Assembly: GCF_000143415.4 (NCBI RefSeq)
Contig: NW_003314283.1
Span: 258,752 to 322,751, forward strand
DNA: 64,000 bases
Origin: Selaginella moellendorffii
Taxonomy: Eukaryota; Plantae; Lycopodiophyta
Direction of reading: 5' to 3'
The translations under genes were made by a program, and so were the position numbers. The notes below the pieces were generated by a model. It did no database searches and was not told where the DNA came from. It was given only the letters and a program-made list of their open reading frames with translations. Of this stretch, positions 20,252 to 55,122 are shown in pieces (the stretch's first letter is position 1; every line of letters starts with the position of its first letter).

Positions 20252-22864
20252 TTATACATTAGCTTTGAGAACCCAGACCGAATCAGTCAACCACTCTTTT
20301 AGATACAAAGACACGTTATTGCCACCAATCACTCCACATAATGGCTGTATGGTCCCCTCAACTTTTTGCTGTTTCTGTGGCGCACCACTAGGGCGTTGAC
20401 TGGTAAAATAGTTGAAACCAAACTGTTCTAGATCCTGCTCCGTATGAGGCAAAACTGCCAGTCGCAGCAGTCCATTCTCTGAAGCAAGATTTATAAGCCT
20501 GTTTAAACCTTCATCTTCTTTTGTCCTACAATTCATCAAATCGAGAGCACTTGAAATTTCACCTTGAGGAGTTGTATCAGTCCTGGATTTCATCTGTAAC
20601 AAGCAAGGCATGAGCTGCCGCTTCGACTCATAATCATTGGTGAGAAAAAATAATGCGTCGGGACGAAAGCCATCCCAGCCACCATCACCAGTCCAGAGAA
20701 CCGTTGGAAATGAGTCAGCCTGCCCTTCAACGTCGTTGAGATACTTCTCAAGTGTATAGCAGTCGGCACCATGGGTGTGACTTTTACCGCACATCTTTGT
20801 CACAACTTCTGTTTCAACGCGTGCTTTCACCACCTTTGCCTTCTCAAAATATATTGCGGGAACTTGAAAAGTGCTGTTCTGCAGTTCCACACTGCGATTC
20901 CGAAGAAAGCAAGAAACAAAGTCTACAGGAGCCTTTCCGTCCAATGCGTCAGCCACCATAATCCCCGCCAGCCTATCAAACTCAAGACCCACTGTCACAA
21001 GCTGCTGCTGACAAAACTCATCAAAGCCTGTTGGCTGCCGATTACGAAAGTAATGGAAAAGAGCTCGGAAGACAGCAGGTTCCTGAAGTTTGATCCAACT
21101 GTCTTTATCCTGCTTTGCAAAGAACTTATCCAAGTCCTCCAACGCAACACTGTTTCCATTGCTTAGCCAGGCTAACCCAAACTCCACAAGGCTCAGAGAT
21201 GGATTGTTGATGTTGAGTATAGTGGATATGGACCCAAACATCTGGTGATACACTATCACCTCTAGCTCCTTGAGCGCTGCAGCATTCCGAGTCCTTTCAA
21301 AAAACAGCTCCACATCCCTCAGAACCGTCTCATCCATGTAGACTTCCAATCCTGATGTGTTTGGTACACCTCCCAGAGAACGACTGATTGTACTTGAGGT
21401 GCATATCTTCTCAAAAAAGGCAATCAGAAATTCTGTTGCCTGCTCCAAGGGACGCTTACTCCCAATGAAATACTCAAGAGCTGTGACAAAGAACCTGTAC
21501 CTCCCTTTGTACAAATCACAGACCCTCTGCATATCAATACCATCCACACTTTGGAGCAGTTTGCCAGCATAGAGCTTGAAGTCCTCAACAGTGATGAATC
21601 CACCAAATCCATGAAAGACAACAACAGAAGCTTTCCCCTTCAGAGTGGCAGAGATATCCCGTGCCACGGTAAGCATACTAGACCCGCTGCCTGCATAGTA
21701 GAATTGTCGAAATCCACTATTTATCAGCGCAGGCACGAGAATATCTAGGAACGATCTCATACCACTTCCAAGAGTTACCGAAGAAAATCGCTTTTCCAAC
21801 CAGCGGTTTATCATCTTGCACTCGTCAAATATGATTGGACTATTCCACTTCCCTATTAAACGATCCCTCCCTATTAAACGATCGAGTACCTCCTGGAACT
21901 GACCTTCAATGGGTTTCAAATCGTCTTTAGTCCGTATAAGGTCTAAAAGTCTACCAGTGAGCGCCTTGAACGGATCTTTGAAGTTGTACAAGTACTCGAG
22001 CGAAGGCAATGCAACCTGCTTGAAGAGCCATGCTTGACCTGTCAAATAGCCCGTTTTCTCCACCTGCCCCAGCAAATAAAACCTGCTAATCAGCAAAGCT
22101 TTGAGACAGATTGTAGCACTAACTTCTGGAATGTCTCCAGTTGGATACAGCTCCAGCAACTTTAATGCCACTAACTTGAGATCTCCTGAACCTTCAGCTC
22201 CAATACCAGTGTCAGAGACCCCCACAAAGAAGAGCCCACGCTGCGCTACAGCGATCTCATACAATGTCCTGGTCTTCCCTGATCCCGACACGTTGAAGAG
22301 AACGGTAAGGGTCGGCAGCGCTTTGGAAGTTCCCTCTATGATACGCTTGGATGCTTCGAAAGGCTGGTCTAGTGCATGCCACAAGAGGCGGGGGCATTCA
22401 TCTGTAGGATCTTTTGGCAGTGGGACTTTACACGTTGGGAAATTCGCCAGAAACGCATCCGCCTTGGGATATTCAAGATTTGGCTTGCGCAACTCATGCC
22501 AAAACCTATCCAAGAGACTTTCTATATGTGCCACAGTCCCAACTGCTTTGACTGATTCTGCAAGAAAAAACAACGCAAGTCAAAATTTGCAAGAGACACC
22601 CAAAAACGGACCAAGAGATCTAAAAAGGAAAGACAAAACAATGAAAGCCTACATCCACAAAGGCTTACTCTTGGACTTCAGTAAGAGATCGCACAGCTGC
22701 TGCTCCTTCTTGCGCAGCTGCGCCTTGTCGTGGACCAGCTGCTCCTCCTCCTCGGGATCACTTGGTTGCTTGAGTTTCCCCTCAATAATTTGGCCCTCAA
22801 CCACAGCAATTTGCTGTTGAACTTCCTGAAATTCCCTTGACAAGCCATAAACCGGATCATCCAT
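20252..22864 (-). CDS. Crinkler/RHS (CR)-like protein: coiled-coil header + P-loop NTPase + PD-(D/E)xK-type nuclease; exons 22864-22669 and 22557-20252
   Basis: Walker A LFNVSGSGKTR, Walker B PIIFDEC, C-terminal GLEFD...FRPDALFF...LLQMK. Exon 1 encodes the helix QLRKKEQQL and splices in frame through a GT-AG intron. Confidence 0.7.
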
Positions 22865-37107: not shown

Positions 37108-37406
37108 CGCGCGAGAACAGAGAAACAGAGCGCAAAACCCTAGATCCGTAAGATATAACTAGGGTTTGTAGCTATGGCGGGAAAATAATTAAAGTCGATA
37201 TAAAAGCCTTTTTATAGGAAGTGACACATTATTGGAAAATTGAAAATAATGTTACAACAGTATTGTCTGTTGAAGGATTTTTCTTCAATTATAGATAGGT
37301 CTTAAGAAATTTTCATTAAAACCAGGTGTGTCAAACTGGAGCTTGAGCTCAGTGAATCAAACGAGCCCTTGAAAATCTCTAGCAACAATCTGAAAAAAGA
37401 ACTGGT

Positions 37407-37430
37407 AAGCTCTATTTCGTTAAAGTGGGA
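37407..37430 (+). repeat. Left terminal inverted repeat
   Basis: 23/24 identical to the reverse complement of 50562-50585; preceded by TGGT. Confidence 0.88.
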
Positions 37431-38610
37431 TTTATTCAGTAAAATGGGATTAGGTACAAATTTTCAAGTATTTGAAAATGACGTGAAATTATATGTTTTT
37501 TGTCCAGGGGCTAGACATATCTGGGGCATGGTGACTAGCGCGGTGACTTTATGTCCAGACTGAGTCCATCTGGTTGTATAATAAATCTCATTGTCAAGGT
37601 GAACAATCTGAATCTGAAGCTAAAGAAGAGCGATGGCATGCGCGCACACACTATTTGTTTGTTCATTAAGCGTGTGGTGAGCTTTCCAAGATGAACGTCA
37701 TTCCTATTAGCCAGACATATAACTTAATGGTGAGAACATTTAGATATTATTCAATGTTATCTTTTTCTAACGAATCTAATTGTGAAGGTGTAGCAAGAGG
37801 CATTGCTAGTCTGGAGAAGTCATTTAACTCATTTGACCCTTGAAATTTTCATGAAACTAAATAACATTCATATTATTAAGGAATTTCTCTAGTACCTTTT
37901 TTTTACGACATAGAGGCTTGCATTTCTTTCAAAGGTGATTTAGTAAAAGGCCTGAGGGCACATGCCATTCTATTTCTCAGACCGGTATTAAGATATACTA
38001 GTGCAAAGGGAAAAAGGTATTTGGTGATCAAGTAAATGGCATGAGGGCACACGCCATTATAAGCCTAAGTGCTAGTGGACACCTCCTTTTTGGTACTCTC
38101 AGCGGTACTATCATCCTTCTCCGGGTCAGTTGTTTTGCTTTGGATTGTTGTCTTTGACGTTACTGGGGCGTTCTCGATAGTTGTTAATGTTGCCGTTTGT
38201 TCAGAAAAATGATCACCTGGAGTATAGTACGGGGAGTTTGGAAGACTTATATATTCTACATCTTCACCTATCTCCTTCTCCGTCTCCTTTTCTGCCTCAC
38301 CTACAGATTTTGTGCTTGCCATGAGAACGCTCTTCACCCTAAAATATGGAGTTCGTTGTGTTATAAAAGGAAACCAACACACACGCTACAAGGGAATGAT
38401 GGTACATAAAGCACGTAAGCCCACAATATAGGTTTATGTGCCATTAATATGGGCCACACGCCATATTATTAGATTTATGCACGTGTGATTGGTAAATGCA
38501 TATGTCACATCATTTTTGTTTTACCTCACACACTATATCAAGCCTCCTCTGATTCAGATTCGGATTGTTCACCTTGAAATAAAATACATTAGAAACTTAG
38601 TAAAGGAATA

Positions 38611-41600
38611 TTAATGAATCTCACCTTGAACTCGGGTTATGAATGCTCTTGCTGCATCTCTTGCATGGTCTGGCAAGGTGATGATGGCACTCTGCTTCCG
38701 CATCCAACCATGCACAACATTATCCACCGATATGCTCATGCTGGGATCCCTTGGATTCAGCACCCATCTCTTTTCTAGGCAATCCTTCGTATATCCAGAA
38801 CTTGGCTTGAACCACTCCACAGTTACATTGAAGGAGTTAGTTTCCGCGTCCTCCTCTGCATCAGTGATGCAGCGCCCCACCCATATCATTTGTTTTTTAT
38901 TACTGGGTCTAACAAGCATGACCATTCCTTTGCAGACCTGTACTGGATTGAATGCTGAATCCGGCTTCTTGTTCCTCGGCCCACAATAGTGATCCTCAAC
39001 ATCGTTATCTGTCACTGCATTTCCAGAGGACATTGTTCCGCTACTATCTGGTGCTCTGGGTTCTGGCCAAAAGGACTCTTCCAATTCTTCATATACAATC
39101 GGCCCATTTTGGATAGTAGATATAATCTTCTCCCAGTATTCGAGCAAAGGCTTGCACCTCTGAAAATAGGATTCTCCACCAAACACCAACCCCCTCTTCC
39201 AGAAGGCAATATGCTGTCTAATCCCGGCCACTATACTTTCCTGGTCTTTGAGTCCATCCGGGTGCATCGGCCGTGGGGAACCCTGAGGAATCATAGGTTC
39301 CCCAGTTATGGGATCTCTCTTGAAGAGTTCAATGCCGTCCACTGGCAGCCACACTGTGTCCCATTCTCTCATCTTGTACCTCATCACTGGAGCACTGTCA
39401 CGCATGCTGAAATGAAACTGAAGAGGCTTGGAGTGGCCAATCAGCATTTCGGATCCATCCCTAATGTAGCCTCTTACAAACCCCTTAAAGTTTGGAACCT
39501 CTGTCACAAGTGCAGCTTCAACAGTGCCTTTGATGCAATTTTGGAATTCATCGTAGAGTTGTGGGAGGGTGAGGACATTGGATCGCTGGAGGGACTCTGC
39601 CAGGTGACTGAACATGGCATCGACGTCTTCATGAGTGTGCCCAACCATGAGAAAGCCAAGTGTAACCGTTTCAAATATGCCTTTGGCAACAAACATCGCC
39701 AAGTACGCGAAGACGTACATGTTTTTGTTCTCACTGCCAGCATTGTCTGTTTGGAGCAGAAGATGGGGTGGAAGGCCACATCGGCCGCAAGAACTTCCTT
39801 GAGATTCTGCTTCGTTTGGATGAGGCTGTGCATTCACCGGGCGACTAGCCTCGTCGGAATGGCATGAGGCCTCACGTGATAACCCTACAATCTGACGGCC
39901 AACATATTCACTGGGATGGCATGGGGCCCCACGCGATACTGCAAGCCTTTGCTCCTCCTCCAGCTGAACCCTGTATGGGGTTCGATTGACAAGGGCCTTA
40001 TGCAAGGGTTGGCCGTTCAGCTCAGTCTGCGCACTTTGCAGAGACCTTAAGTGTTTTGCTAGGGACGCAATCATCATGTTTGCACCCCTGCCACCCCATA
40101 GAGGTACAAAGAAGTTCCCATAGTTCTGGGCACCATGCCCATGAGCGATTATGCCAAACAGAGACACAGGCAGTTGCATGGATGAAGAGATTGCCTTGGG
40201 GGCAGGATTGAGTCGAGGTAAGCACGTCTTTTTCTGGTCCATTTTGTCGTGGATGATGCAGAGGTAAGAGTCAGGTCTCTCCATGGAGAGAATCCTGTTA
40301 TGATAATATGCAGTCCTGCAGCTTCTCTGCTCGATGTTGTGGTCGAGCCGCCTTCTAACTAACGTCTCTCGCTCTTGAGCGATGCAAGAATTCTTCGACA
40401 AAGCCATTTTGATAGCAGTGCACTCGTCATACTTTGAAAAGCTGGAGTACTTTCTTATACTCACATCCCTGAACCTGTTGCTCCACAATCGACTAAATCT
40501 AGATTGGCTCAGCTTCCTGTAGCCATTACTCTGGAGTTCCCGATTCACATTTTCCAATATGGCCCCCTTGGTATACATGGAAGGGAGAACTCGTTGGGTG
40601 TCTCGAGTTCCATCTTCCAAGAGGCGGGTTTTATGTGGTTGCTGCTCGCTACATGTCTCGACAAACCTCTTGAAGATTGCTTCTCCATATACAACATGAC
40701 CCCTGGTTTTTTGAGTACCGTCGTTCCCATGGACTGCCTGTTGAACCCTTTGTTCCTCGAACTCAGTTTTGATTCTATAAAATGTGGTTCGAGGGACTCC
40801 ATAAATGATTCTCCATGCCTTCATGCATACCAAACCCCTCTGGAAGACCATGCCCCCCACCTGATGTTCTGAAGCATCAACAGATGACCGTAATGCCTCA
40901 TACACAAAATTGCGAGCTGCCTTCCAGGACAATGTTTTGTATCTTGCTCTCTCCTCTTCAATAGCATCCCAATCAGCATGTTGACAGCACCTCCTCTTGC
41001 AACAAGCAACTGTCGAGACCATTCGAACCTCCATCGCCATTTTCTGCCTTTTCGGTTCGTTGCTCAGATCCCTTTGGCTGCGCTTTAGGAAGGTGTATTT
41101 TCTTTTCCCATGAAGAAATGTTCTGTCATCAGTTGTAGTGGTGTTTGATTGTGAATCCTTCACATTCTCAAACACTAAGTGCCTCAATTTCCACCGCACA
41201 ATGCTTCCAATAGTCAGACTGTTTTCTTCTGTGTCAACAACCTCTAAAATCGCAACTCCAATATCATCCTAGCCCAATTCTTGATTAGCAACCGCATCTC
41301 TTGGATCGACAACTATGGCTAAGCCCTCAGCTACCACCTCCCCCTCGGGGTTGTTTAGAAACACCTTCGCCTGAATCTATGTCGCACGGTTTTTAAGATC
41401 CACGGAGGGAACATGCGTCGCACTTGCGCTGTCCCCAACATCTGCTTTCTTCTGAAGATTTTTCAAGGCAACAACAACATTTACCCCGACGACCATCTCT
41501 CCTCGTTCAATAGCGACCACATTCCCATCGAAGACAGTCTTTACTGATACAGCAGCATTGCCTTCCCCAAGCCTTTGACAGTGTATAACAAAGTTCCGAT

Positions 41601-41679
41601 CCATAGACACAAGGGTCCTTTTTGCAACTCTCTTCCCACCATTCAAAATGTAAACCTTTTCCCCAACCCTGAAGGCCAT
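38611..41679 (-). CDS. DUF7869/Sola-like RNase H-fold transposase (~1020 codons; two in-frame TAGs at 41377 and 41269)
   Basis: Cys-rich CCKRRCC and C..AW..IYG; catalytic-type motifs IIHDKMDQKK, LQTDNAGSENKN and FLMVGHTHEDVDAMFS. ORF 41377-41679 is in the same frame as ORF 38611-41199. Confidence 0.85.
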
Positions 41680-42042
41680 TCTGAAAGTGCAGAAAAGAAG
41701 TTAAAACCATACAAAAAATGATTGGAGAATGGCCTAAATCATAACATACCAAACAACCTCAATAGCATGAGGCCACATGCCATTATTCAAACATGCTATT
41801 GACACCCACGTGAAATTTTGCATTCACAAAATTGGCATGAGGCCTCATGCCATCTTGATATACACACAGCTGCAGGCAAGTAAAAACATACATGACAATA
41901 CGCTAGCCATGAAATTGCAAGGGCCCAAGATGGCATGTGGCCTCATGCCATTTCTAAATGTGGTCCTAAGCCATTCCATGGTGAACATACCAGGAAGCAC
42001 AAGTGCCGAATATCAAGAGGAAGCGGTAGCCACACCAAAGAT

Positions 42043-42115
42043 AGTGCCGCTCGCAACACCGCAACTACTCGTAGTGCCGCTCGCAACACCGCAACTGCTC
42101 GTAGTGCCGCTCGCA
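42043..42115. repeat. 30-bp tandem repeat (~2.5 copies)
   Basis: TAGTGCCGCTCGCAACACCGCAACTrCTCG repeated. Confidence 0.85.
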
Positions 42116-42974
42116 CAAACTGCCACTCGCATAAACTGCCGCTCGCAATGGCGTTCGCAATGCCGCAACCACTCATAGACGCATAAACCACAGCCCACAA
42201 TGCCGCTTACACAAGCAGCGCTCACTACGCTCAGCGGAACCAAGAACACGGCGCACAAAAATGATAGACCTAGGAATGAGTTCGAGAATTCAAAAATAAC
42301 ACACGCTTGAACGTCACATCAAATCCTCTGACAAACCAGATCTTATGATTCCTCTGACAAATTTCAAACTGAGTAGCTTCTAGACTTTGCTGTCGGAGGT
42401 TGAACTTTGTCACATCATGTCCTTGCCTCGATCCAGCTGTGCCATGTCAGTGATTCGAACTTTGCCATGCCATATCAGCGATCCGCGCCAAGATTATTCG
42501 CCGTGTAAAGGAATAATTATGCTGTGTGTGTACGTCCATTTATGGCAATATAAGGCCACACGCCATTCAAAGAATAATGCTAGTCGATCATTTTTTGGTG
42601 CATTTTTGGGTTCAAAATTGCATGAGCCCACACGCTATAAAGTTTACCTATACCAAAAATAGAAACAGCTTTATTTACTTGGGAATTTAAGTGGTTGAGG
42701 CATTTTTAAACTTACAAACACATGCCCTACTTACATTCCTTTGGTTGCTTAAAATTCAAAAATATTATAAACCTTTCTTTTTGCATTTTCAATGTTTTCA
42801 ATTATGGTTTTTGATTTTCGCAGGACCAGCCTAGTAATCTATTTGCATCCCGTCATGTTTATAGCTAGCTTTCGTTTGTCCCCTTCGCTAGCCTGAGATA
42901 CATCTGCTCGGCATCTGCCTCTTACAGCATTTGCCCAGAAAGGGCATCTTTCTTCACGCAGCATTTGCCACATG

Positions 42975-43000
42975 TTTAGGGTTTAGGGTTTAGGGTTTAG
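42975..43000 (+). repeat. Short interstitial plant telomeric tract (TTTAGGG)3TTTAG
   Basis: Read directly. Confidence 0.9.
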
Positions 43001-44214
43001 CAATTCAGTAGCTTGATAAACATGCAAATACAGAACTTGATGCAAAATCCTTTGATATGTCACAATGCCCTTAGGACCATAAACACATTTCAATAAAGAG
43101 GGTCCTTTCATTTCATAACTCCTTACGTAGATCTTGGTGAAACCAGAGTTAGTGAAGTTAGTTTCTTGTGATCCCGCATCTGATTGTGATGTCCCTTTGC
43201 AGTGTCGATGGAAAGGTCAATGCACACCAAACTGTAAAATCTTGGAGCAAAATAACGGTCAGATCTATGGCAAATGCCCCTGAAACATTGTAAGGCTCGT
43301 GTGGTCTCATGTGGTGTCCGATCGAGATGCTTCTTTGCAGGGTCATCAAGAAAGACATTGTATACCATTCTTTAAAATCTAGTTGCGATCTAACGGTTGG
43401 ATCTCCAGAAAACTCAAAAAAATCTCGCGCGTGTCAGAATATCCTAGGAATATACTCCTATGTGCCCCTGAAAATGGCATGTGGCCCCACGCCATTCAAG
43501 AGATAACGCCAGATGACGCCGAGAATTTTTTGGTGCATTTTTTGGGTTCAAAATTGCATGAGCCCACACGCTATAAAGTTTATCTTTGCCAAATAGAGAA
43601 AAGTTTATCTGTGTCATGTGAGGTAGTTACAGTCCTTTGTGCTCGGCATCTGCCTCTTGCAGCATTTGCACTGAAAGGGAATTTTTCTCCATTCAGCATT
43701 TGGCCCTAAAAATGGCATGCGCCCACACGCCATTCAAGGAATAACGCCACAGGACGTCTGGATTTTTGGGTTTAAAATGTTTAGGGTTTTTTGGGTTTTT
43801 TCAAAATATTTTGGGTCCAACGTTTTTTGGGTTTCTTTGGTTCAAAATTGCATGAGCCCACACACTATAATATTGATTTGAGAGAAAAATAGAAAAAAAT
43901 AGAATTTCTTTATTTAGCTGAACATCTGCCATTTTTGGAAATACAAGATGCTTTGGAATATCCAATCATGCATGGTATAAATATAGCGAGGGTATTAAAT
44001 GATATCCCAATCATGATCTTTCTTTTGGATTTCGCGTGCATGCAGTCCGAGGACTGATGACGTTGCGGATTTCTTTTGGATTTTGCGTGCTTGCATGCGC
44101 GCGGCAATCCAGAAATTAATGGTGGCGCCCAAGTCCGAGGAATGGTGACGTGGCGGGATTACCAACTGTTGTGACATTTCGCGCGTGTGAGGTTAGGTTT
44201 TGCATTTTGCTTCG

Positions 44215-44412
44215 TACTCGCGCTCGCACACTCGCGCTTGCGCTCGCATCACACTCGCGCTCGCGCTCGCATCACACTCGCGCTCCCGCTCGCATCGCGC
44301 TCCCACTCGCAATCACGCTCACTTCTCTACAGGTTTCTCGTGTGCATCGGCGTCCACTCGCGCTTGCATCACACTCGCGCTCGCATCGTGCTCGTGTGCA
44401 TCGGCGTCCACT
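44215..44412. repeat. CG-rich degenerate tandem repeat (CTCGCGCTCGCATCACA units)
   Basis: Read directly; lies upstream of the + strand cargo gene. Confidence 0.8.
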
Positions 44413-44841
44413 TCAAGACACACCCAGTTTGTAACTTCGCCGCCAACTCCGCCGCCCACTCCGCCACCCATACGTAGCCCACTTGGCGTCTCGGGAGATT
44501 TCAGCGCCACTCTCCAACTGTAAGTGGCAGAGTAGCCTTGCTGCTACGATCCGCTGCACACACAATGCACATTCACCAGAGAGTCCGGCCTCGATTGTCA
44601 CGGCCTCCATTCGGCTTCAAATGGTAAGTCTTTTAGGCCAAGTAGAAAATGGCATGAGGCCACATGCCATTCAGTAGCAACATTGGCATGCACCGATTGG
44701 GCTCTCGAGTGCAGTCCGGTTACAGATGGCGTGTAGCCTCACGCCATCTTAGGATGCAGCCTCAAGACATCTGATGTAGTGGTGAATGGCGTGTGGCCTC
44801 ACGTTATTTCCAGCTGCTAGCTTTTCATCTGTCAGCTCTAA

Positions 44842-47800
44842 TTGTTGTGCATTTCTGAACAAGCGAGGAATTGCGTTCTTCTTCCAGCCACTGTCAATGT
44901 GGATGCAGAGAAGGGGGAGGAGCTCACCAGTTGGACTTTCGGGATGGAAGGCGAGGATCTGAGGCTGTACAACACAGATGGTAGGAGAAAAGAATGCATG
45001 GGGATCCTCATCCAAGTGACAGACACTCCATGCAGTTCCATGCAAGAATATGGACTGGCACTTGTGATAGAGACAACATCCGCCTTCAAGATCCACCTTG
45101 CACATCCTAGCGACCTCCTGGAGGGGGGCAGCGGCTATGAGGAATTCCTAGAGGGAGCTAGGGAGAGGTTGTCTAGGAGGCCCACAATTTCAAAGACGCT
45201 GCGGGTCTATGAAGATCACATGGAATCCACGGACCTCACCTACGGCGATGTTCAAAAACTATATTCCAACATTGAGCCGTTGAGAGTGCCTCCAGTTCGC
45301 GAAGCGAAGGGGAAGGGGGTCGATTTGGAAACTACCCCGAAGCAGAAAAGGGTGGTCAAGCTCAAGCCGACATCCGACTCTCTTGCTCCAAAAAAGAAGC
45401 TACTCGGTGATGCCATTGCCTCAGGTTCGAACACTACACCCAGCAAAAAGAAGAGCCGCAAAGAGCAGAAAGAGCAAGAAGAGGCAGCAAAAATCGTCGC
45501 AGATAATAGTACTTGTTACTATTCCAACAAAGTATATACAATCGACGTGAGCCGTATCGACATCCAAAGCAAATACAACCACAGGCTAGTATCTGATGAG
45601 TGGGTGGAGAAACTGAAGCAGAAGATGCTGGCAAGTCCAGTAACACCCGACATCGCAGACGTGATCCCCTACTACCAAACAATGAAGGGCGAGACGAGGT
45701 TTCCAGACTTGATCAATAGGAAGGTGTTGGACGATCAGAACATCCGGTTCTATGCCGTCTCCGGGCAGCATTCTAGCTTGGCGATGCAAGAGATAGTTCT
45801 GGATATTATGGTGGGCGAGGAGGTGAAGAAAGTCTTCAAGACAAGAGTTGTCCGCCTGATAAAAGGCAACTCGCCCCTCCGATCTATCATATCCATCTCC
45901 TACGCGCAGAATGTCAAGCAAGAAACGTGCTACAAATCGGGTCTGCACGAGACATTGGCATGAACACGGAAGCTCTGGGTTCAACTGAAGAAGCCACAAA
46001 AACTAGGACAAGGACGTGCACTAGCAACTAGCGCCTGGCAGGTAAGCCTCGTTGCATGTGGCATAGCATGTGGCCTCACGCCATTTCCATTGCAGGAATT
46101 CTTGAGTCTTCTCTCGAAAACACTAGGGGTCAATGACACACTCAGCATCCATAACATTCTACTTGCGACAAAAGTTGTTTTTGACAAATGGGTAGATGTG
46201 CTGAGGAGGTACCATGACGGGGAATTGCTAAACTCAATGGGTGTGGAGGACGGCCGGAAGCCCAATGATTTGAAGCTCAACGCCTTGCGTTTCTCGCGGT
46301 CTCTAGACGACGACGACCTTTTGACAGTGGCTAATGCTCTTCTACGTGGTGAGGTAGTCTTCAACAAGACCAAAATGACTCCCGGCCATATTGTGACATA
46401 CGAGGACTTGTGCACGACTCTGAGAGCTCGTGCACTATTGAAGGATTGGATCTTCGAGCAAGTGGCCGTGGAGAGGGTGAGCATCGACACCACGCAAGAG
46501 ATGATGGAAGAGCTGGAGTTGTCAAATGAAGACATCAACGACTACGTGAAGGGGGCCCCCAAGTTCATCGATCTGCTGCGGGATGCCACGAAAAGTAAAG
46601 CTGAGAAGTTGGATCAGTATCCAAATTTCATTAAAAGGGATGTCGACCGCCGGCTTCAGAAACAGCTCGACCCCGCAGCAGAGGCCTATCGAGAACCTTA
46701 CCGGGTATACGTGAATTCGGATGAGGATCAAAGGTGGAGGAGCATCGTTTCCCGCGGAGATGAGCAGGTCAAGAACATCTTTTGTGTGATGGACTTCACA
46801 AACGAGGAGATCACTCATGCAGATGAAGTCAGCTCCATCATTGACTTAACGGTGGGACTTGCGGAGGTGGAATCTTCAGTCCACTATATGATCTACGACT
46901 CCGAATCCTATCACAAGTTCTGGAAGGCCTTGAACGAGGTGAAGGCTCGGTTGAAAGGCAAGGAGATGCAGGAGATCCATGGGATAATGGCTAAGAAGAA
47001 AATACCGACGAATGTCCGCATCTTCACACTCGCCCTTGTTATTGGTCCTACAGCAGAGTGGGACTGGAGTGACTTCCCAGCTTCGTTCGACAAGGCCGAT
47101 CGAATTGATCTGAGGGAGGTCAATTTACCCGTGCCTGAGGAACTGAAGACGGCTATGGAGCTTTCGAATCCAGAGAAAGCTCCAGGTGCAGCATGGGAAA
47201 TGCTCAGCTGGGTCTTCAACGCAATAGCACCTGCTTCCGACTCCAAGGGCAAATGCGTTGTCGAGTACAACTGCGGCAGACTATTCTTTCGAGCCGCACT
47301 ACTCAAGGGTGTCCCGTGTGTTGCGGTGATAAACTCCATTGAAGAGGTGACTTCAATGAAACATATAATTACATTTGCCAAAGAAAAACAGTATCTTCTC
47401 TGCGAACCTAGTGAGTACACACTTTAAGTTTAAATGTTATCTCACAAGCTCTGTATGCAGGAGCGTGGCCACCCCCAGATGCTGAAACGGCATTAACAGC
47501 TACTATTGGGCCGAGCTCACAACCTGCACAAGGTAAGGTCACGTGAGGCCTCATGCCATTTTGATTATAAATCGTTGTGAATATTCAGACACGAGGACTG
47601 AAAAACGCACTGGTGGCGCGTCGAAGAAGGACAAACAGACAAGCAATAGGAAAAAAGGAGGTACAAATTATATTTGCAATGGCGTGTGGTCTCATGCCAT
47701 TCCTTGTAGGAGACACTTCTTCAAAGGCAAAACAGGCAAGCACCAGCCAAGCTCAAACTGACAGTGGTCATAAAAAGCGAAAGCACGTTGGACAGTCGTC

Positions 47801-50143
47801 GGGATCAAAGGCGTTTGATTCGAAAAGGAAGAAGGGCAACGAAAAGATGATAGGTAATGCCTCGCGGTCACCACCTCCTGACTTAGATTCCTATGGCGGA
47901 CTCCCCTTCCCCAATCTCAATGGAGAGGTACAATGGATGAGGGATGCTTTTCAAGTCAGGGCCACGTTTTTCTCATCTCGTCGTCTTCGAAGGGTGCAAG
48001 AACGTGCAGAAACTATGTTAAGACAGTCGGGTGAGGATACGGTCCTAGGTCACGCACTAAAACAGGCTATGGATATCTTGTATTTTGAGATGGAGACTCG
48101 GCCAGATGATTTTCCCAAGATGGTCCTGGAAGAACAAGCCATCCAGCCTGAGCAGCTTATGGAAGAAATGCAGGAGGGGGATGAGGAGCCAGAGAAAGAT
48201 AATGAGCAGGAAGAGCAGAAGGACGAAGAGGAGGACAAAGAAGAGGAGGATGAAGAAGAGGAGGACGAAGAGGACTTGGATGGCCCTCACAATGGTGACG
48301 ATCACAATAACGACGATGACGATGATGACGACGATGGCCAGCCTGAGGTGGCCAAAGAGCAGCGGAGGAAGGTCATACAAGACAAACCATCAGGTAAATA
48401 ATAGTACATCCATTCCTAACCTTTTACCATTTCTAACATTGTCCATGTAGGTTGTAAAGCAAATGGTAAGTAGAAATTATTCAGTTGAATTAAGATACAA
48501 ACTCTAGCCTTTAGTGTCGAGGAAGGATAGTGTCAAGCAAGGGTCGAAACGTATGTCCAATCCTTCAGAATCAGCAGTGCGCCCAATAGCAGTTGATGGT
48601 AAATACAGTATAGTCGATTCAATGTGCTAATGAGTTTGTTTTTAGTAGCTAGTAGGGAGGATACCATCTCAATCGAAGGGAGATATTTGGACATGCATAT
48701 GGATCTGCCAGTGGACTCTACTTGCCTGCAAGAGTCATCAGAGCTGGTGGAGGCTACTATCCATATCAACGCCAAGCAAGCTAACCATGCTCCACTTGAT
48801 GCTGCCCATACCACTGAGTCAATCTTGTCCACGTATCCAACTGATGGTGACCAGGCGCCATTGGACCCGCATGAGGCCGCCCCAGCCGCCGAGCCGGTCG
48901 TATCCTCATTTCCAACGGACTCAACGTGTGCCCAATCGTCTGACTACGCGCCGTTGGAACCTCCCTACACCGCCCCTGCTGCCTGTTCGGTCATGTCCAC
49001 TTTGCCAACGGAGGCACCAGCTGAAATGGCGTGTGATCACATGCCATCGGAACCACCCCGTGCCACTGTTGAGCCAGTTGTACCAGAGTCTACAGCTGAA
49101 ATGGCATGTGCCCACACTCCATCGGATGCGATTGACCCCACATTGCAGAGGAGAGTATTTCCGCCCTTTACGTTTCCTCGACCAAAACCCTCTCAACAAC
49201 CATCGGGAGCACCATTCGCTAATATTGTAGATGGTAAAATTGACTTGTACCATTTTTTATGCTAACGCATTTCATTTCAGAGTCACGGCAAAGGTATTGT
49301 ATCGTTTTTGATCTGAACGGTGTCCTTTTCTCCCATGAGCGTGGCTTGTCCTCGAATGTCACTGCACCCTCCAAAGCCTGCGGTCGCAAGTTGGTCAAAA
49401 GAGACAGATTCACATTAATCACACGGGAGAAACTGCGGGATCTAATAATGACCATGCGACACTTAAAACAGAGGGCCGGGTTCAATTTGCAATTGGGAGT
49501 TTGGACATCCATGATGCGCCACAATGCATTAACGTTGCTACAGATGATGCACGATCAGACGCGAGTAATATTACCATTTGACTTTCTCCTAACGCAGGAG
49601 GATTGCTTGACTATGGTCCATGTGAGGGGTAGCAAGCCCATCTTCGTCAAGCCAGAGGCTGTAGTGATGAACCGGACTGCTAGGTCAAGTGAAATCCTCA
49701 TCATCGATGACTCGCCGATTAAAACTACAGCGAACACGCACACATATGCAGTGCACCCCATCTCTTGCAGTATGGAAACTAGGGAGAAGAAACCGTATGT
49801 TCTGGGGGACCTTGCAAAACGGCTTGGAGCGATGGTGATAGAGAACCGGCCAGTCCGGGAGGTGGCTGCAGAAATCAACCAAATGGCAGATGGAACGGTA
49901 TATCAGAAGCCATTTGATCGGACAGACACCAGTCATCATTTATGGCATGTATATTGTCTAGCCAAGCACTATCCGCATCTCCATAATCTGCTCAACCGGA
50001 TGGGTTCTTCGACCATTGAACATGAGCGTGGACGTATTAGAGAAGAGATGGCATTACTATTGGGTTTAAATCCTGATAGTGTGGAGAGTGATGAAATTCC
50101 AAGATTATTGTATAGGCGTTGGAGGCAAAAAATAACAGTCTGA
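44842..50143 (+). CDS. Transposon cargo gene, multi-exon: ParB/Srx-like domain - degenerate N4/N6 DNA methyltransferase-like domain - acidic tract - Pro/Ala-rich linker - FCP1/NIF HAD phosphatase; premature stops at 45961 and 48528
   Basis: ParB-like TIDVSRID..NHRLVSDEWVEKLKQKM..FYAVSGQHS..A; MTase-like NPEKAP..KGKCVVEYNCGR..AALLKG; NIF YCIVFDLNGVL, GVWTSMM, LIIDDSPIK. Phase-compatible GT-AG introns at 46042-46095, 47411-47460, 47533-47589, 47661-47709, ~48394-48450 and ~49234-49281. The 5' end and the 48500-48650 junction are uncertain. Confidence 0.7.
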
Positions 50144-50561
50144 GATGGCATGTATTTATTTAAAAATGTAACTTATTATGGCATGGGGTTCCATGCCATT
50201 GTATTAATATTAAAAGACAATTCTTTGAGAGGATTTGCATTATACTAGAAGTGTTACAGCATGTTATTGGAAGTCTGCGAAGTTGTTTTATTAATAAGGG
50301 GAAAGTAAAGATTGAATGGGGACTTGGGCTCCACCTAGACTCGGAGCAACTGAGCCAATATTAAAAAGATGGAAAGAAATTGGACGACGATGATAAGGAG
50401 AAGAGAGAGGTGAAGCAGTGGCAAGGGGAGGAGAAGTGATTGAGTAGACATTTCCTTGTTTAAAATAAAATGGCATGTGCCTCAATGCAGTTGAATTTTG
50501 TTATATTTATATACTATATAAAGGTTTGGAAACCTTATTTTACAAGTGGGATAATGACAAT

Positions 50562-50585
50562 TCCCACTTTAACTAAATAGAGCTT
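50562..50585 (-). repeat. Right terminal inverted repeat
   Basis: TCCCACTTTAACTAAATAGAGCTT followed by TGGT. Confidence 0.88.
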
Positions 50586-51351
50586 TGGTCAAGCTTTTCT
50601 TTCCTTCCTTTTATTTTTGTTTTGTTCTTCTAATCCTCTTATCTATTTCTCAGGACTTACGAAAACATTTGATTGAATGCAATGTCTGTGGTAATCTGCC
50701 ATTCGTGACACTGATCGGCTATATGCAACTGTGTTATAAAGAAGATAACTCCTTCCAAAGAACACCTAAGAATTAACGCTGTTTTTTTGTGTGTGTGAAG
50801 AAATGAATGTAACTCTCCAGACCTGCGCTTGAATTTATCCTCTGAGGTGCCTGCTGCGGCTCTCAACGGGATCGAGCAACACTCCCACTATCTACATGTT
50901 TCATGAGAACACAGACTTACACAACTTGTATGAGCAACCTAGTCATCAAGGGTAATTTCTTTTCATTTCCAACACTAAGCTAATACGAGGGCGGAGGCTC
51001 CAAAGTGACGAGCACCATGGAAATCTAATGCTCTCTAAGGCTGATTTTATGCATGGCATGGAAAGTTTTCCTTCTTTATCCTCTCTTCTATGAATTTTTT
51101 TCTGTGGTGTTGTAGCTTGATATAAAGTCTTACCATATAAAGCTTATCTTCCATATTGCGATTTCGTGAGAGAAGCTTCTCCACCAGTGTTAGCTAGACC
51201 TGAATATATTAACGTAAACAAAATTTTCTTAAAATTCCACATACAAATTCATGATTCCACAAACTCTAAAAACATGTGGCATAAACTTTAAAAAAGGCTA
51301 AGAAACCCAATTACCCTTATCTCACCATAATTTAGCTTTAAGACCAGTCTT

Positions 51352-53917
51352 TCAGATACAAAGACACGTTTTTGCTCCACCTAATGGCTGTATGTCCTGA
51401 ACTGTTTTACATAATGGCTGTATGTCCTCAACTTTTTGGCGTTTCTGTGGCTGGCCACCACTAGAGAGCTGACTGGTAAAACCAAGCTGTCCCAGATCTT
51501 GCTCTGTATAAGGCAAAACTGGCAGTTGCAGTAGTCCATTTTCTGAAGCAAAATCTATCAGCCTGTTCAAACCTTCATCTTTTGTCTTTTTCTTCCACTC
51601 CGGAAAATTAAGATTGCCCAAAGCATTCGAAACTTTATCTTGAGTGGCTTTATCATTCAAGGATTTCATCTGTAATAAGTAAGGAATGAACTGCCATTTC
51701 CCTTCATAATTGTTGGTGAGAAAAAACAATGCGTCTAGAGGAAAGCCACCCCAGCCACCATCACCAGTCTGGAGAACCGTTGGAAACGTGTCAGCCTGCC
51801 TTTCAACGCTCTTGAGATACTTCTCAAGTGTATAGCAGTTGGCACCATGGATGTGCCTTTTACCGCACATCCTTGTCACAACTTTTGTGGCAACACGTGG
51901 TTTCACCACATTTGCAACCTCAAAATATATTGCAGGAACAGCCTTTCCGTCCAATGCGCCAGCAACCATAAGACCCATAGCCACCTGCCTTTCAAACTCT
52001 AGACCGACTGTCACGTTACTACCTTGACCCTTGGCGTTAAACTGCTGCTTATCAGGATGGTCAGGTGATGCCCTTCGTGGGTCCTCATGACTTGAAATAG
52101 CTGTTGCTGTTGTTGTATCAAATACTCTTGGCTGACTCCAAAAGTAATGAAAAAGAGCTCGGAAGATGGCAGGTTCCTCAAGTCTGATCCAAGTGTCTCT
52201 ATCCTGCTTTGCAGAGAATTTATCCAAGTCCTCCAATGCAACACTATTTCCACTGCTTAGCCAGGCTAACCCAAACTTCACAAGGCTAAGAGATGGTAAA
52301 GTGGACATAGACCCAAACATCTGATGATACAGTATCACCTCTAGCTCCTTGAGTGCTGCAACATTTTGAGGCCTTTGGAAAAACAGCTCCACATCCCCCA
52401 GAACCGTCTTATCCATGTAGAGTTCTGGTTTTGATTTACCATGCTGAGAACGACTGATTGTACTTGAGGTGCACATCTTCTCAAAAAAGTCAATCAGAAA
52501 TTCTGTTGCCTGCTCCAAGGGACGCTTGCTCCCAATGAAATGCTCAAGTGCTGTGACAAAGAACCTGTACCTCCCTTTGTACAAATCACAGACCCTCTGC
52601 ATATCAATACCATCCACACTTTGGAGTAATTTGCCAGCATAGGTCTTGAAGTCCTTGACAGTGATGAATCCACCAAATCCATGAAAGACGATAACAGAAG
52701 CTCTCCCTAGGGTGCGGAAGATATCCTGTGGCCTAATCAGCATAGCTTCGGTGCTTGCATAGTAGAATTTTCTAAATCCACTATGTATGAGAGCAGGAAT
52801 GAGAATATCAAGGAATGATTTCGTGCAAAATCCAAGACTTGGCGAAGAAAACCGCTTCTCTAACCAAGTGTTTATAATTTGGCACTCATCAAAGATGATC
52901 GGACCATCCCAGCTCCCTCTTAAACGATCCAATACCCCCTGGAAATTACCTTCAACGAGTTTCAAGTCCCTTTCAGTCCGTATAAGGTCCAAAAGTCTAC
53001 TGGTGAGCAACATAAACGGATCTTTATGCTCGAATAAAGGCATTGCAACCTGTTTAAACAGCCACGCTTGACCTGTACTGTCCATTTTCTCCAGCTGACG
53101 TAGCAAATAAAACCTGCTAATGAGCATAGCTTTGAGACAGATTGCAGCACTAACTTCTGGAATGCCTCCAGTTGGATATAGCTTCATCAACTTTGATACC
53201 ACTAACTTGAGATCTCCTGAACCTTCAGCTCCAACACCCCCCACAAAGAAGAGCCCACGCTGTGCTACGGCGATCTCATATAATGTCCTGGTCTTCCCCG
53301 ATCCCGACACATTGAAGAGAACAGTGAGGGTCGGCCGCGCTTTGGAAGTTACATCCATGATATGCTTGGATGCTTCAAAAGGCTGGTCTAGTGCATGCCA
53401 CAAGAGGCGAGGGCATTCATCTGTAGGAGCCTTTGGCAGTGGGACTTTACAAACCGGGAAATCCACCAGAAACCCATCCGGCTTGAGATATTCAAGATTT
53501 GGCTTGGGTAACTCATCCCAGAACTTATCCAAGAGACTATCTACATGAGCCACAGTCCCATCTGCTTTGCCTGGTTCTGCAAGAAAAAACAACGCCAAGT
53601 CAAAATTTGCAAGAGACGCAACTGGGGACCCAAAAAGGGACCAAGAGATCTAAAAAGGAAAGACAAACAATGAAAGCCAAAGGCTTACCCTTCGACTTCA
53701 GTAAGAGACTGCGGAGCTGCTCCTCCTTCTTGACCAGGCACTTCTCCTCCTTGGGATCATTTGATTGCTCGAGTTGCACCTCGACCGCACTAATTTGGCC
53801 ATCAACCGCATTAATTTGGCCCTCAACCACAGCAATCTGACGTTCAACTTCCCGGAATTCCCTTGACAAGCCAGAAACAGGATCATCCACCTCCATGGGC
53901 TCAGCTGAAGACGCCAT
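51352..53917 (-). CDS. Second Crinkler/RHS-like NTPase + nuclease gene (paralog of 20252-22864), two exons
   Basis: Same Walker A FNVSGSGKTR, Walker B IIFDECQ and GLEFE..LDALFFL..LLQMK; same intron position after LLLKSK; ATG at 53917. Confidence 0.7.
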
Positions 53918-54658: not shown

Positions 54659-55122
54659 GCAGTTGCGGTGTTGTGAGTAGCGCTATGAGTAGTTGCAGTG
54701 TTGTGAGCGGCACTGTGTTTGGTGTGGTGCCGGCTTCCTCTGGATATTCGACGCTTGTGATTCATGGTATGTTCGCCATGGAATGGCTTAGGTCTCACAT
54801 TTAGAAATGGCATGAGGCCACATGCCATCTTGGGACCTTGCAATTTCATGGCTAGCGTATTGTCATGTATGTTGTTACTTTCGTGCAGCAGTGTGTATAT
54901 CAAGATGGCATGAGGGCTCATGCCAATTTTGTGAATGCGAAATTTCACGTGGGTGTCAATAGCATGTTAGAATAATGGCATGTGGCCTCATACTATGGAG
55001 GTTGTTTGGTATGTTATGATTTAGGCCATTCTACAATCATTTTTTGTATGGTATTAACTTCTTTTTTGCACTTTCAGAATGGCCTTCAGGGTTGGGGAAA
55101 AGGTTTTCATTTTGAATGGTGG
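54659..55122 (+). mobile_element. Internal fragment of a second copy of the Sola-like transposon family (inverted relative to 41635-42090)
   Basis: High reverse-complement identity to 41635-42090, including palindromes at 54807, 54905 and 54975 and the transposase start ATGGCCTTCAGGGTTGGGGAAAAG at 55079. Confidence 0.9.

Follow-up and report, generated by a model that had tools for sequence, protein, structure and literature searches.

A predicted ParB-, methylase- and FCP1-like fusion gene in a Sola-like transposon of Selaginella moellendorffii

The element and its two genes

We analyzed a 64,000-bp window of the Selaginella moellendorffii genome (RefSeq assembly GCF_000143415.4, contig NW_003314283.1, positions 258,752 to 322,751 of the forward strand). 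A predicted gene at 44842-50143 of this window (defined as the “fusion gene”) encodes a protein with ParB-like, methylase-like and FCP1-like domains. The fusion gene sits in a 13,179-bp element (37407-50585), head to head with a transposase gene on the opposite strand, and the element includes 21 copies of a 22-bp palindrome. Our leading interpretation, on which we remain evenly divided, is that the exons comprise one predicted accessory gene of a Sola-like transposon, and that the encoded protein probably acts as a non-catalytic scaffold on the palindromes and would help the element to be transcribed despite methylation. The features of the element, including its target site duplications (TSDs) and terminal inverted repeats (TIRs), are as follows.

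37403-37406: left TSD, TGGT
37407-37433, plus strand: left TIR, 27 bp, 93% complementary to the right TIR
38611-41679, minus strand: DUF7869 transposase gene (putatively Sola-like, DDD), 1,022 codons from the first ATG
41680-44841: intergenic region between the two divergent genes, holding 11 of the 21 palindromes, with CG-rich tandem repeats before each gene
44842-46041, plus strand: exon 1, N-terminal region, basic linker and predicted ParB/Srx-fold domain (about 45514-45927) with the SGQHS box (45760-45774)
46096-47410, plus strand: exon 2, conserved helical domain (about 46096-46670) and methylase-like region (about 46700-47409)
47461-47532, 47589-47660, 47710-48393, 48451-48465, 48515-48598 and 48646-49233, plus strand: exons 3-8, low-complexity linker with basic clusters
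About 48156-48338, plus strand: acidic tract within exons 3-8, followed by a Pro/Ala/Thr-rich tract
49281-50143, plus strand: exon 9, FCP1/NIF-like HAD domain and short helical tail
50559-50585, minus strand: right TIR
50586-50589: right TSD, TGGT

The exons of the fusion gene form one frame with eight GT-AG introns of 47-57 nt each. This frame has 1,630 codons from 44842 and 1,596 from the first in-frame ATG (44944), giving a predicted protein of about 1,600 amino acids. The initial annotation had joined five open reading frames (ORFs) into a single gene, which is supported as a predicted model, and all five of its junctions (SAWQ/EFLS, CEP/RAWP, PAQ/DTRT, KKG/GDTS and IVD/ESRQRYC) are present, with GT-AG borders and compatible phase. 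It also placed the only damage at 48500-48650. This was ruled out, as introns 48394-48450, 48466-48514 and 48599-48645, together with two small exons (15 and 84 nt), restore the reading frame. The actual lesion, which that annotation did not name, is the single internal stop of the spliced frame, a TGA at 45961-45963 inside exon 1.

The frame stays open in 36 of the 5,400 combinations (0.7%) of AG acceptors located 40-70 nt behind the eight donors, and for seven of the eight introns the acceptor used is the first AG available at least 40 nt behind the donor. GC content is 29-41% in seven of the eight introns and 47-57% in the exons, except for the 15-nt exon (33%). Intron 1 is itself in frame and stop-free, and its retention would add 18 residues. 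The RefSeq model of an S. moellendorffii homologue reads REWQEFESF across this intron and does not have the 18 extra residues, and the ends or starts of several predicted homologues fall near the same position. Separate genes instead of one spliced gene were rejected (the related case in which the long fusion is not made is weighed below), as was the idea that the locus is prokaryotic or belongs to a phage. The window consists of plant nuclear DNA in which the genes are compact, among them a gene with PHD and BAH domains (probably ORC1-like), a kinase and an amino-acid permease, and a rough scan gave candidate host introns of about 46-90 nt. We conclude that the fusion gene is real as a predicted gene model.

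The transposase matches Pfam PF25273 (E-value = 5e-41) and has 11 homologues. Three aspartates are conserved in the alignment of these homologues, in HDKMD (11 of 11), TDN (11 of 11) and HEDVD (10 of 10), and probably constitute the DDD triad. Two in-frame stops (41377-79 and 41269-71) interrupt the gene in this copy; each is a Trp codon in another copy that shares 97% identity. The Sola superfamily is described as having a 4-bp TSD, inverted ends and a DDD transposase (PMC10741241). The TSD of 4 bp (one insertion only), the 27-bp TIRs (Sola range 11-1124 bp) and the probable DDD triad agree with the superfamily, and the element fits a Sola-like DNA transposon.

Four public runs of the same organism were used (X1, X3, X11 and X20). 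They derive from no more than three samples, of which one may be the source of the window. In X3 and X11, which are shallow runs with the flanking host DNA unassembled, depth jumps at 37407/8 from close to zero to 86-146, and the contigs cease to match at 50585/50586. Given the jump at the left end and the loss of matches at the right end, we infer that the element family is high-copy. Contig depth gives no copy number, and only the step at the element ends was used.

Domains of the predicted protein

A search of 1.84 billion representatives returned 15 homologues of the predicted protein at 23-33% identity, the closest named ones being from Selaginella moellendorffii, Riccia and Calypogeia. 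The alignments comprised 14 of these and four cluster members; P0050 (repetitive, 2,573 aa) was left out of all of them. The homologue-based structure model is confident for residues ~190-560 of the 836 folded. Its matches include PadC (Z 9.8, rmsd 2.9, 98 aligned), KorB (Z 9.3, rmsd 2.7, 94 aligned) and pNOB8 ParB (Z 8.5, 193 aligned). As the Z 8.5 match spans residues 204-498, it takes in the helical domain. The top Foldseek rows are all Noc/ParB/Srx (best E-value = 1.8e-3). In combination, the structural comparisons support a ParB/Srx N-terminal fold for the exon 1 domain.

The ParB assignment of the initial annotation thus holds for the modeled fold, and does not extend to the nucleotide-binding box. 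This box is SGQHS in the window protein and in 10 of 11 homologous rows, and DGQHT in the remaining row. SGQHS lacks the arginine of the GxxR nucleotide-binding box of ParB CTPases. Weak counterparts of the N-terminal 180 residues were detected in three homologues. Sequence searches of the PDB gave nothing meaningful, none of the 66 pattern matches from a metagenome scan with the ParB box was confirmed, and PHROGs and NCBIfam had no useful match for the window proteins.

The second domain had been annotated as methyltransferase-like, of prokaryotic or phage type. The window region aligns to the homologues P0047 (z 9.8) and P0074 (z 8.9) above all 500 shuffles. The Atlas model of P0047 (residues ~232-451) superposes on PF01555 methylases with a TM of 0.65-0.68 over ~200 residues, and several of these structural neighbors are fused to ParB_N. 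It is only through this Selaginella homologue that an N4/N6-methylase fold is supported for the window region. The Riccia homologue P0060 has a ParB box and PF01555 in one chain (E-value = 2e-4, under the cut-off), and tblastn of P0060 against phages gave no match.

The annotated methyltransferase-like part has support for its fold only by way of the homologue, and both catalytic motifs are missing. In beta-class N4C/N6A methyltransferases, the catalytic motif IV is (D/S/N)PP(Y/F) and the S-adenosylmethionine-binding motif I is FxGxG. Motif IV is replaced by DFTN (46792-46803) in the window protein and by DLRR in P0047, and motif I by EYNCGRL (near 47263) in the window protein (DFFSGSV in P0060). 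The window protein and P0047 both retain an Asp where motif IV would be, but PPY after the Asp and FxGxG are missing from these two proteins and from P0074. Given DFTN at motif IV and EYNCG at motif I, the region is likely a pseudo-methylase. The S. moellendorffii proteins P0047 and P0063-P0065 (LOC9650508, LOC9646204; 379-451 aa) consist of helical and pseudo-methylase domains only, without a ParB box or FCP1, and are possibly a domesticated derivative.

Exon 9 matches Pfam PF03031 (NIF; E-value = 1.3e-5, 25.4 bits versus a cut-off of 21.8) and has no NCBIfam match. The FCP1-like motifs are DLNGV (49310-49324), WTSM (49502), VKPE (49646) and IIDDSP (49700). DLNGV replaces DxDx(T/V), so that the first Asp is retained and the second is Asn. 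The T/S, K and DD positions are presumably also retained. Relic copies at related loci likewise have Asn at the second position, and some are without the first Asp too. The single-sequence structure model of this exon has a pLDDT of 37. In SCP1 the second Asp assists catalysis (PMC7281111). The initial annotation’s phosphatase of the type acting on the C-terminal domain (CTD) of RNA polymerase II is therefore likely weakened: the FCP1/NIF domain stands and the second Asp does not. Its histone-chaperone-like tract is acidic (39 of 60 residues are D/E), a likeness to chaperones in composition alone.

As each of the three domains is without its signature catalytic residue (SGQHS, DFTN, DLNGV), the protein is more likely to be a binding scaffold than to be an enzyme. 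The converse would be that one or more of the domains are active enzymes with variant motifs, and that the element writes N4-methylcytosine (4mC) or N6-methyladenine (6mA) on itself, or removes CTD phosphates to repress its own or neighboring transcription. In favor of this, the first Asp and presumably the T/S, K and DD positions are conserved in the FCP1-like domain, and an Asp is kept at motif IV. The methylase of an Ectocarpus relative, discussed below, is predicted to be active (PMC12477816). Nevertheless, the PPY and FxGxG motifs are missing from the window protein, P0047 and P0074, and the Asp that assists SCP1 catalysis (PMC7281111) is Asn both here and in the relics. We consider active enzymes to be quite unlikely.

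Palindromes, related loci and decay

The palindrome (symmetrised consensus ATGGCRTGWGSSCWCAYGCCAT) occurs 21 times in the element (37947-50199) and three times in a second family fragment (54659-55122). It was not found in the rest of the window or in 50 simulated sequences with the same dinucleotide content. Eleven of the sites are intergenic, three are in introns 1, 3 and 4, three are in 3′ flanks and two are in each coding region, thus 17 of 21 are non-coding. No site is within 380 bp of either element end. The initial annotation overlooked both the transposon and the palindromes. Its suggestion of an element-targeted role is made plausible by the position of the gene, within a TIR transposon that has 21 palindromes.

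In both genes, the coding-sequence palindromes (49026-49047 and 49101-49122; 39859-39937) are in frame and stop-free. The 44 long related loci, which have decayed, showed no conspicuous gapped palindrome in common. The fragment at 54659-55122 is inverted, 464 bp long and located beside a 100-N gap. It shares 92% identity with the 5′ region of the transposase (41636-42098) and is a second, partial copy of the element family. A plant-type telomeric repeat (GTTTAGG x3.9) is located at 42974-43000 in the intergenic region of the element and has raised depth in X3.

The same array could be read by a structural transposition helper comparable to TnpA of CACTA elements, which would bind the palindromes, fold the 13-kb element and join its ends, with no role in silencing. 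The palindromes are spread along the whole element, the gene is head to head with the transposase gene, and ParB-family proteins bridge and condense DNA. However, 11 of the 21 palindromes are in the promoter region and the ends are free of them, and synapsis needs neither an FCP1-like domain nor an acidic tract. Many related loci have no such gene (a weak point, given their decay), and most Sola elements are described as only 2-9 kb (PMC10741241). A helper is thus an unlikely explanation, and we retain the palindrome-binding scaffold as our preferred one.

From a transposase-alignment scan we kept 80 of 212 related loci, which were reduced to 52 after collapsing near-identical ones. The same domain order was found at one distant relic locus and not as a whole at the remaining loci. 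At this locus (L044/L045), a ParB box, helical domain, methylase-like stretch (by eye), short acidic patch and DLNG-type FCP1 occur in the same order, on the opposite strand and upstream of the related transposase. A helical domain is in the same place in L060/L061, cut by the locus end, and L023 (weak), L040/L041, L062/L063 and L079 have FCP1-like domains on the upstream side of the transposase. Tandem FCP1-like pairs were noted in L041 (1729-3336) and L062/L063 (3975-5728), one with G for the first Asp (FGLRGVL). All the accessory-domain relics are full of stops, and the remaining loci are short or blank. An FCP1 profile made only from relics detected the window domain with an E-value of 2e-12 (the window domain had itself been the seed when these relics were gathered), and a hidden Markov model of the methylase region matched none of the 80 loci.

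Other family copies lack the stop in exon 1: where this copy has T, at 45961, C accounts for 99.6% of X1 depth and is present in the single contigs of X3, X11 and X20. The exonic insertions in other copies (9, 15 and 24 nt) are all in frame and inside the small linker exons, and there is a 1+2-nt deletion beside acceptor 7. Given the absence of the stop from other copies and the in-frame insertions, the gene is open in the family and decayed in this copy. Of the 94 differences in X1, 72 are of C-to-T type. Among the differences listed across the runs (80 of 242 rows), 43 of 62 of C-to-T type are in a CG/CHG context, versus 32% of cytosines. From this excess we infer that the host methylates the element.

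Decay is also what passive cargo would undergo, that is, captured host and microbial fragments without function. Both genes of this copy contain stops, and large transposons often carry cargo. However, the family has an uninterrupted frame of 1,600 codons, invariant residues are kept in homologues at 23-33% identity and the domain order recurs in a distant relic, all of which make functionless cargo extremely improbable.

Beyond the element, two intronless ORFs on the minus strand (20252-22579 and 51352-53649) are 81% identical, encode 765-775 aa with a P-loop-like GSGKT and have no Pfam match. The pair is CpG-depleted (o/e 0.41), and 51352-53649 directly flanks the element. Host genes and a tandem-repeat array occur in local inverted duplications with 70-84% identity (9448-10860/18678-20162, 26150-27918/34539-37112 and 58149-59661/62483-64000).

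Proposed role and known systems

In the scaffold model, the ParB-plus-helical module would read the palindromes, which are clustered in introns and in the promoter region that the two genes share. Having lost its catalytic motifs, the methylase-like fold may contribute DNA contact rather than write a mark. The FCP1-like domain, whose second Asp is replaced by Asn, might bind a phosphoprotein, most simply the CTD of RNA polymerase II (Pol II), or turn it over slowly. The acidic and basic tracts would be flexible linkers that may contact histones. The net result would be a VANC-like, family-specific anti-silencing or activating factor that acts in trans on all copies. A bolder version, which we think improbable, is that this land-plant family has made a triple pseudo-enzyme out of a ParB-methylase of phage type and a CTD phosphatase of the host: a sequence-specific palindrome reader that would grip phosphorylated Pol II via the Asn-substituted FCP1 domain, and counter silencing through the CTD code, not DNA demethylation.

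Several results count against the scaffold model. The methylase-like region was not recognized directly (no Pfam match, pLDDT mostly <50), and profile comparison with 58 phage beta-methylases (from 120 loci) was no better than shuffles in three set-ups. The whole domain order was found in only one of the 52 non-redundant transposase loci, most of which are short or decayed, and weak word-index searches with exon 2 and the FCP1 exon found no full-length protein with the same architecture in databases. This copy shows methylation-type decay despite its palindromes, which could equally serve as transposase sites. No spliced RNA for the fusion gene was seen among the public runs, none of which is on record as RNA. 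In X20, a probable RNA run, contigs wholly retain intron 8 and enter 25 nt of intron 1.

The X20 contigs bear on whether the long fusion is made at all. Introns might be retained or transcripts end early, with the ParB-methylase-like and FCP1-like parts as separate or minor products. The unspliced introns in X20 are as expected in that case, and the S. moellendorffii homologues of 379-451 aa stop after the methylase-like domain. X20 appears to contain a spliced host transcript. Carry-over of high-copy DNA would explain the intron retention and would also be expected to reach the intergenic region, parts of which are covered in X20. In two stretches of 30 bins each, its contigs cover 22 and 16 bins in a partly divergent-transcription-like pattern, although contigs cannot show transcription. 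The gaps between coding blocks are just 47-57 nt with good GT-AG signals, only 36 of the 5,400 acceptor combinations leave the frame open, and the insertions in the small linker exons are in frame. Failure to make the fusion is therefore very unlikely, and we compare the scaffold with known systems on the basis of the full-length model.

ParB-methylase transposon cargo is already known from algae. The Ectocarpus element Sola1-1_Ec32 is described as having a ParB plus N4C/N6A methylase gene opposite the transposase and a 4-bp TSD, and self-binding/modification was proposed (PMC12477816). The element reported here is likewise a large Sola-like element with a 4-bp TSD and a ParB-like plus methylase-like accessory gene opposite the transposase. 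Sola1-1_Ec32 has a length of 21.5 kb, a 282-bp TIR and a 1,104-aa protein with a predicted active methylase, whereas, by comparison with that description, our element is 13.2 kb, with a 27-bp TIR and a protein of ~1,600 aa whose catalytic motifs are lost. It additionally has the acidic tract, the FCP1-like domain and a defined 22-bp palindrome. The architecture, which the initial annotation did not recognize from any described protein, is thus published as regards its ParB and methylase parts. Our literature searches returned no account of the FCP1 fusion, or of any transposon accessory protein with an FCP1-like domain, though subscription journals and preprint supplements could hold one.

Red-algal Plavaka transposons are reported to encode PAG3, with a ParB-like domain, near inverted-repeat arrays, and PAG2, an N6-adenine methylase (10.1101/2025.02.11.637652). 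Like our element, they combine accessory genes for a ParB-like domain and a methylase with inverted-repeat arrays. They differ in that the genes are separate, with 2OG-oxygenase and SET partners and a transposase of another superfamily, and no phosphatase-like domain was found in the available part of that report. VANC of Arabidopsis VANDAL (Mutator) acts against silencing and binds short motifs that lie densely in the introns, between the genes and in the terminal regions of the element (PMC5735166). The placement of motifs in our element is similar, and a similar function is proposed by analogy only. For VANC the function is shown, and its motifs, as described, are 8-9 bp and non-palindromic.

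Two comparisons concern single domains. As in FCP1/SCP CTD phosphatases, the NIF domain is above the Pfam cut-off and the first Asp is kept, but DLNGV replaces DxDx(T/V), the domain is fused to a transposon protein and Pfam detected no BRCT. The predicted ParB and methylase-like domains are the same pair, in the same order, as in phage and bacterial ParB_N + N6_N4_Mtase fusions (PF02195 + PF01555), from which the gene differs in its long intervening helical domain, spliceosomal introns and lost catalytic motifs. Such fusions are the closest structural neighbors of P0047. ParB-linked methylases of phage origin have been described in eukaryotes (PMC4738411), and Marchantia is reported to have active 4mC methylases with TSPPY (10.1101/2021.02.12.428880).

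The family provides a clean test case: young and high-copy, with a gene that is open in most copies and a single, defined palindrome of 22 bp. That the methylase motifs have been lost suggests that the retained function can be binding rather than methyl writing, and the FCP1-like fusion suggests a link to the Pol II CTD that, as far as we found, is unreported for transposons. If the scaffold model is true, the family would represent a second anti-silencing design, unrelated to VANC, and possibly a sequence-specific epigenome tool.

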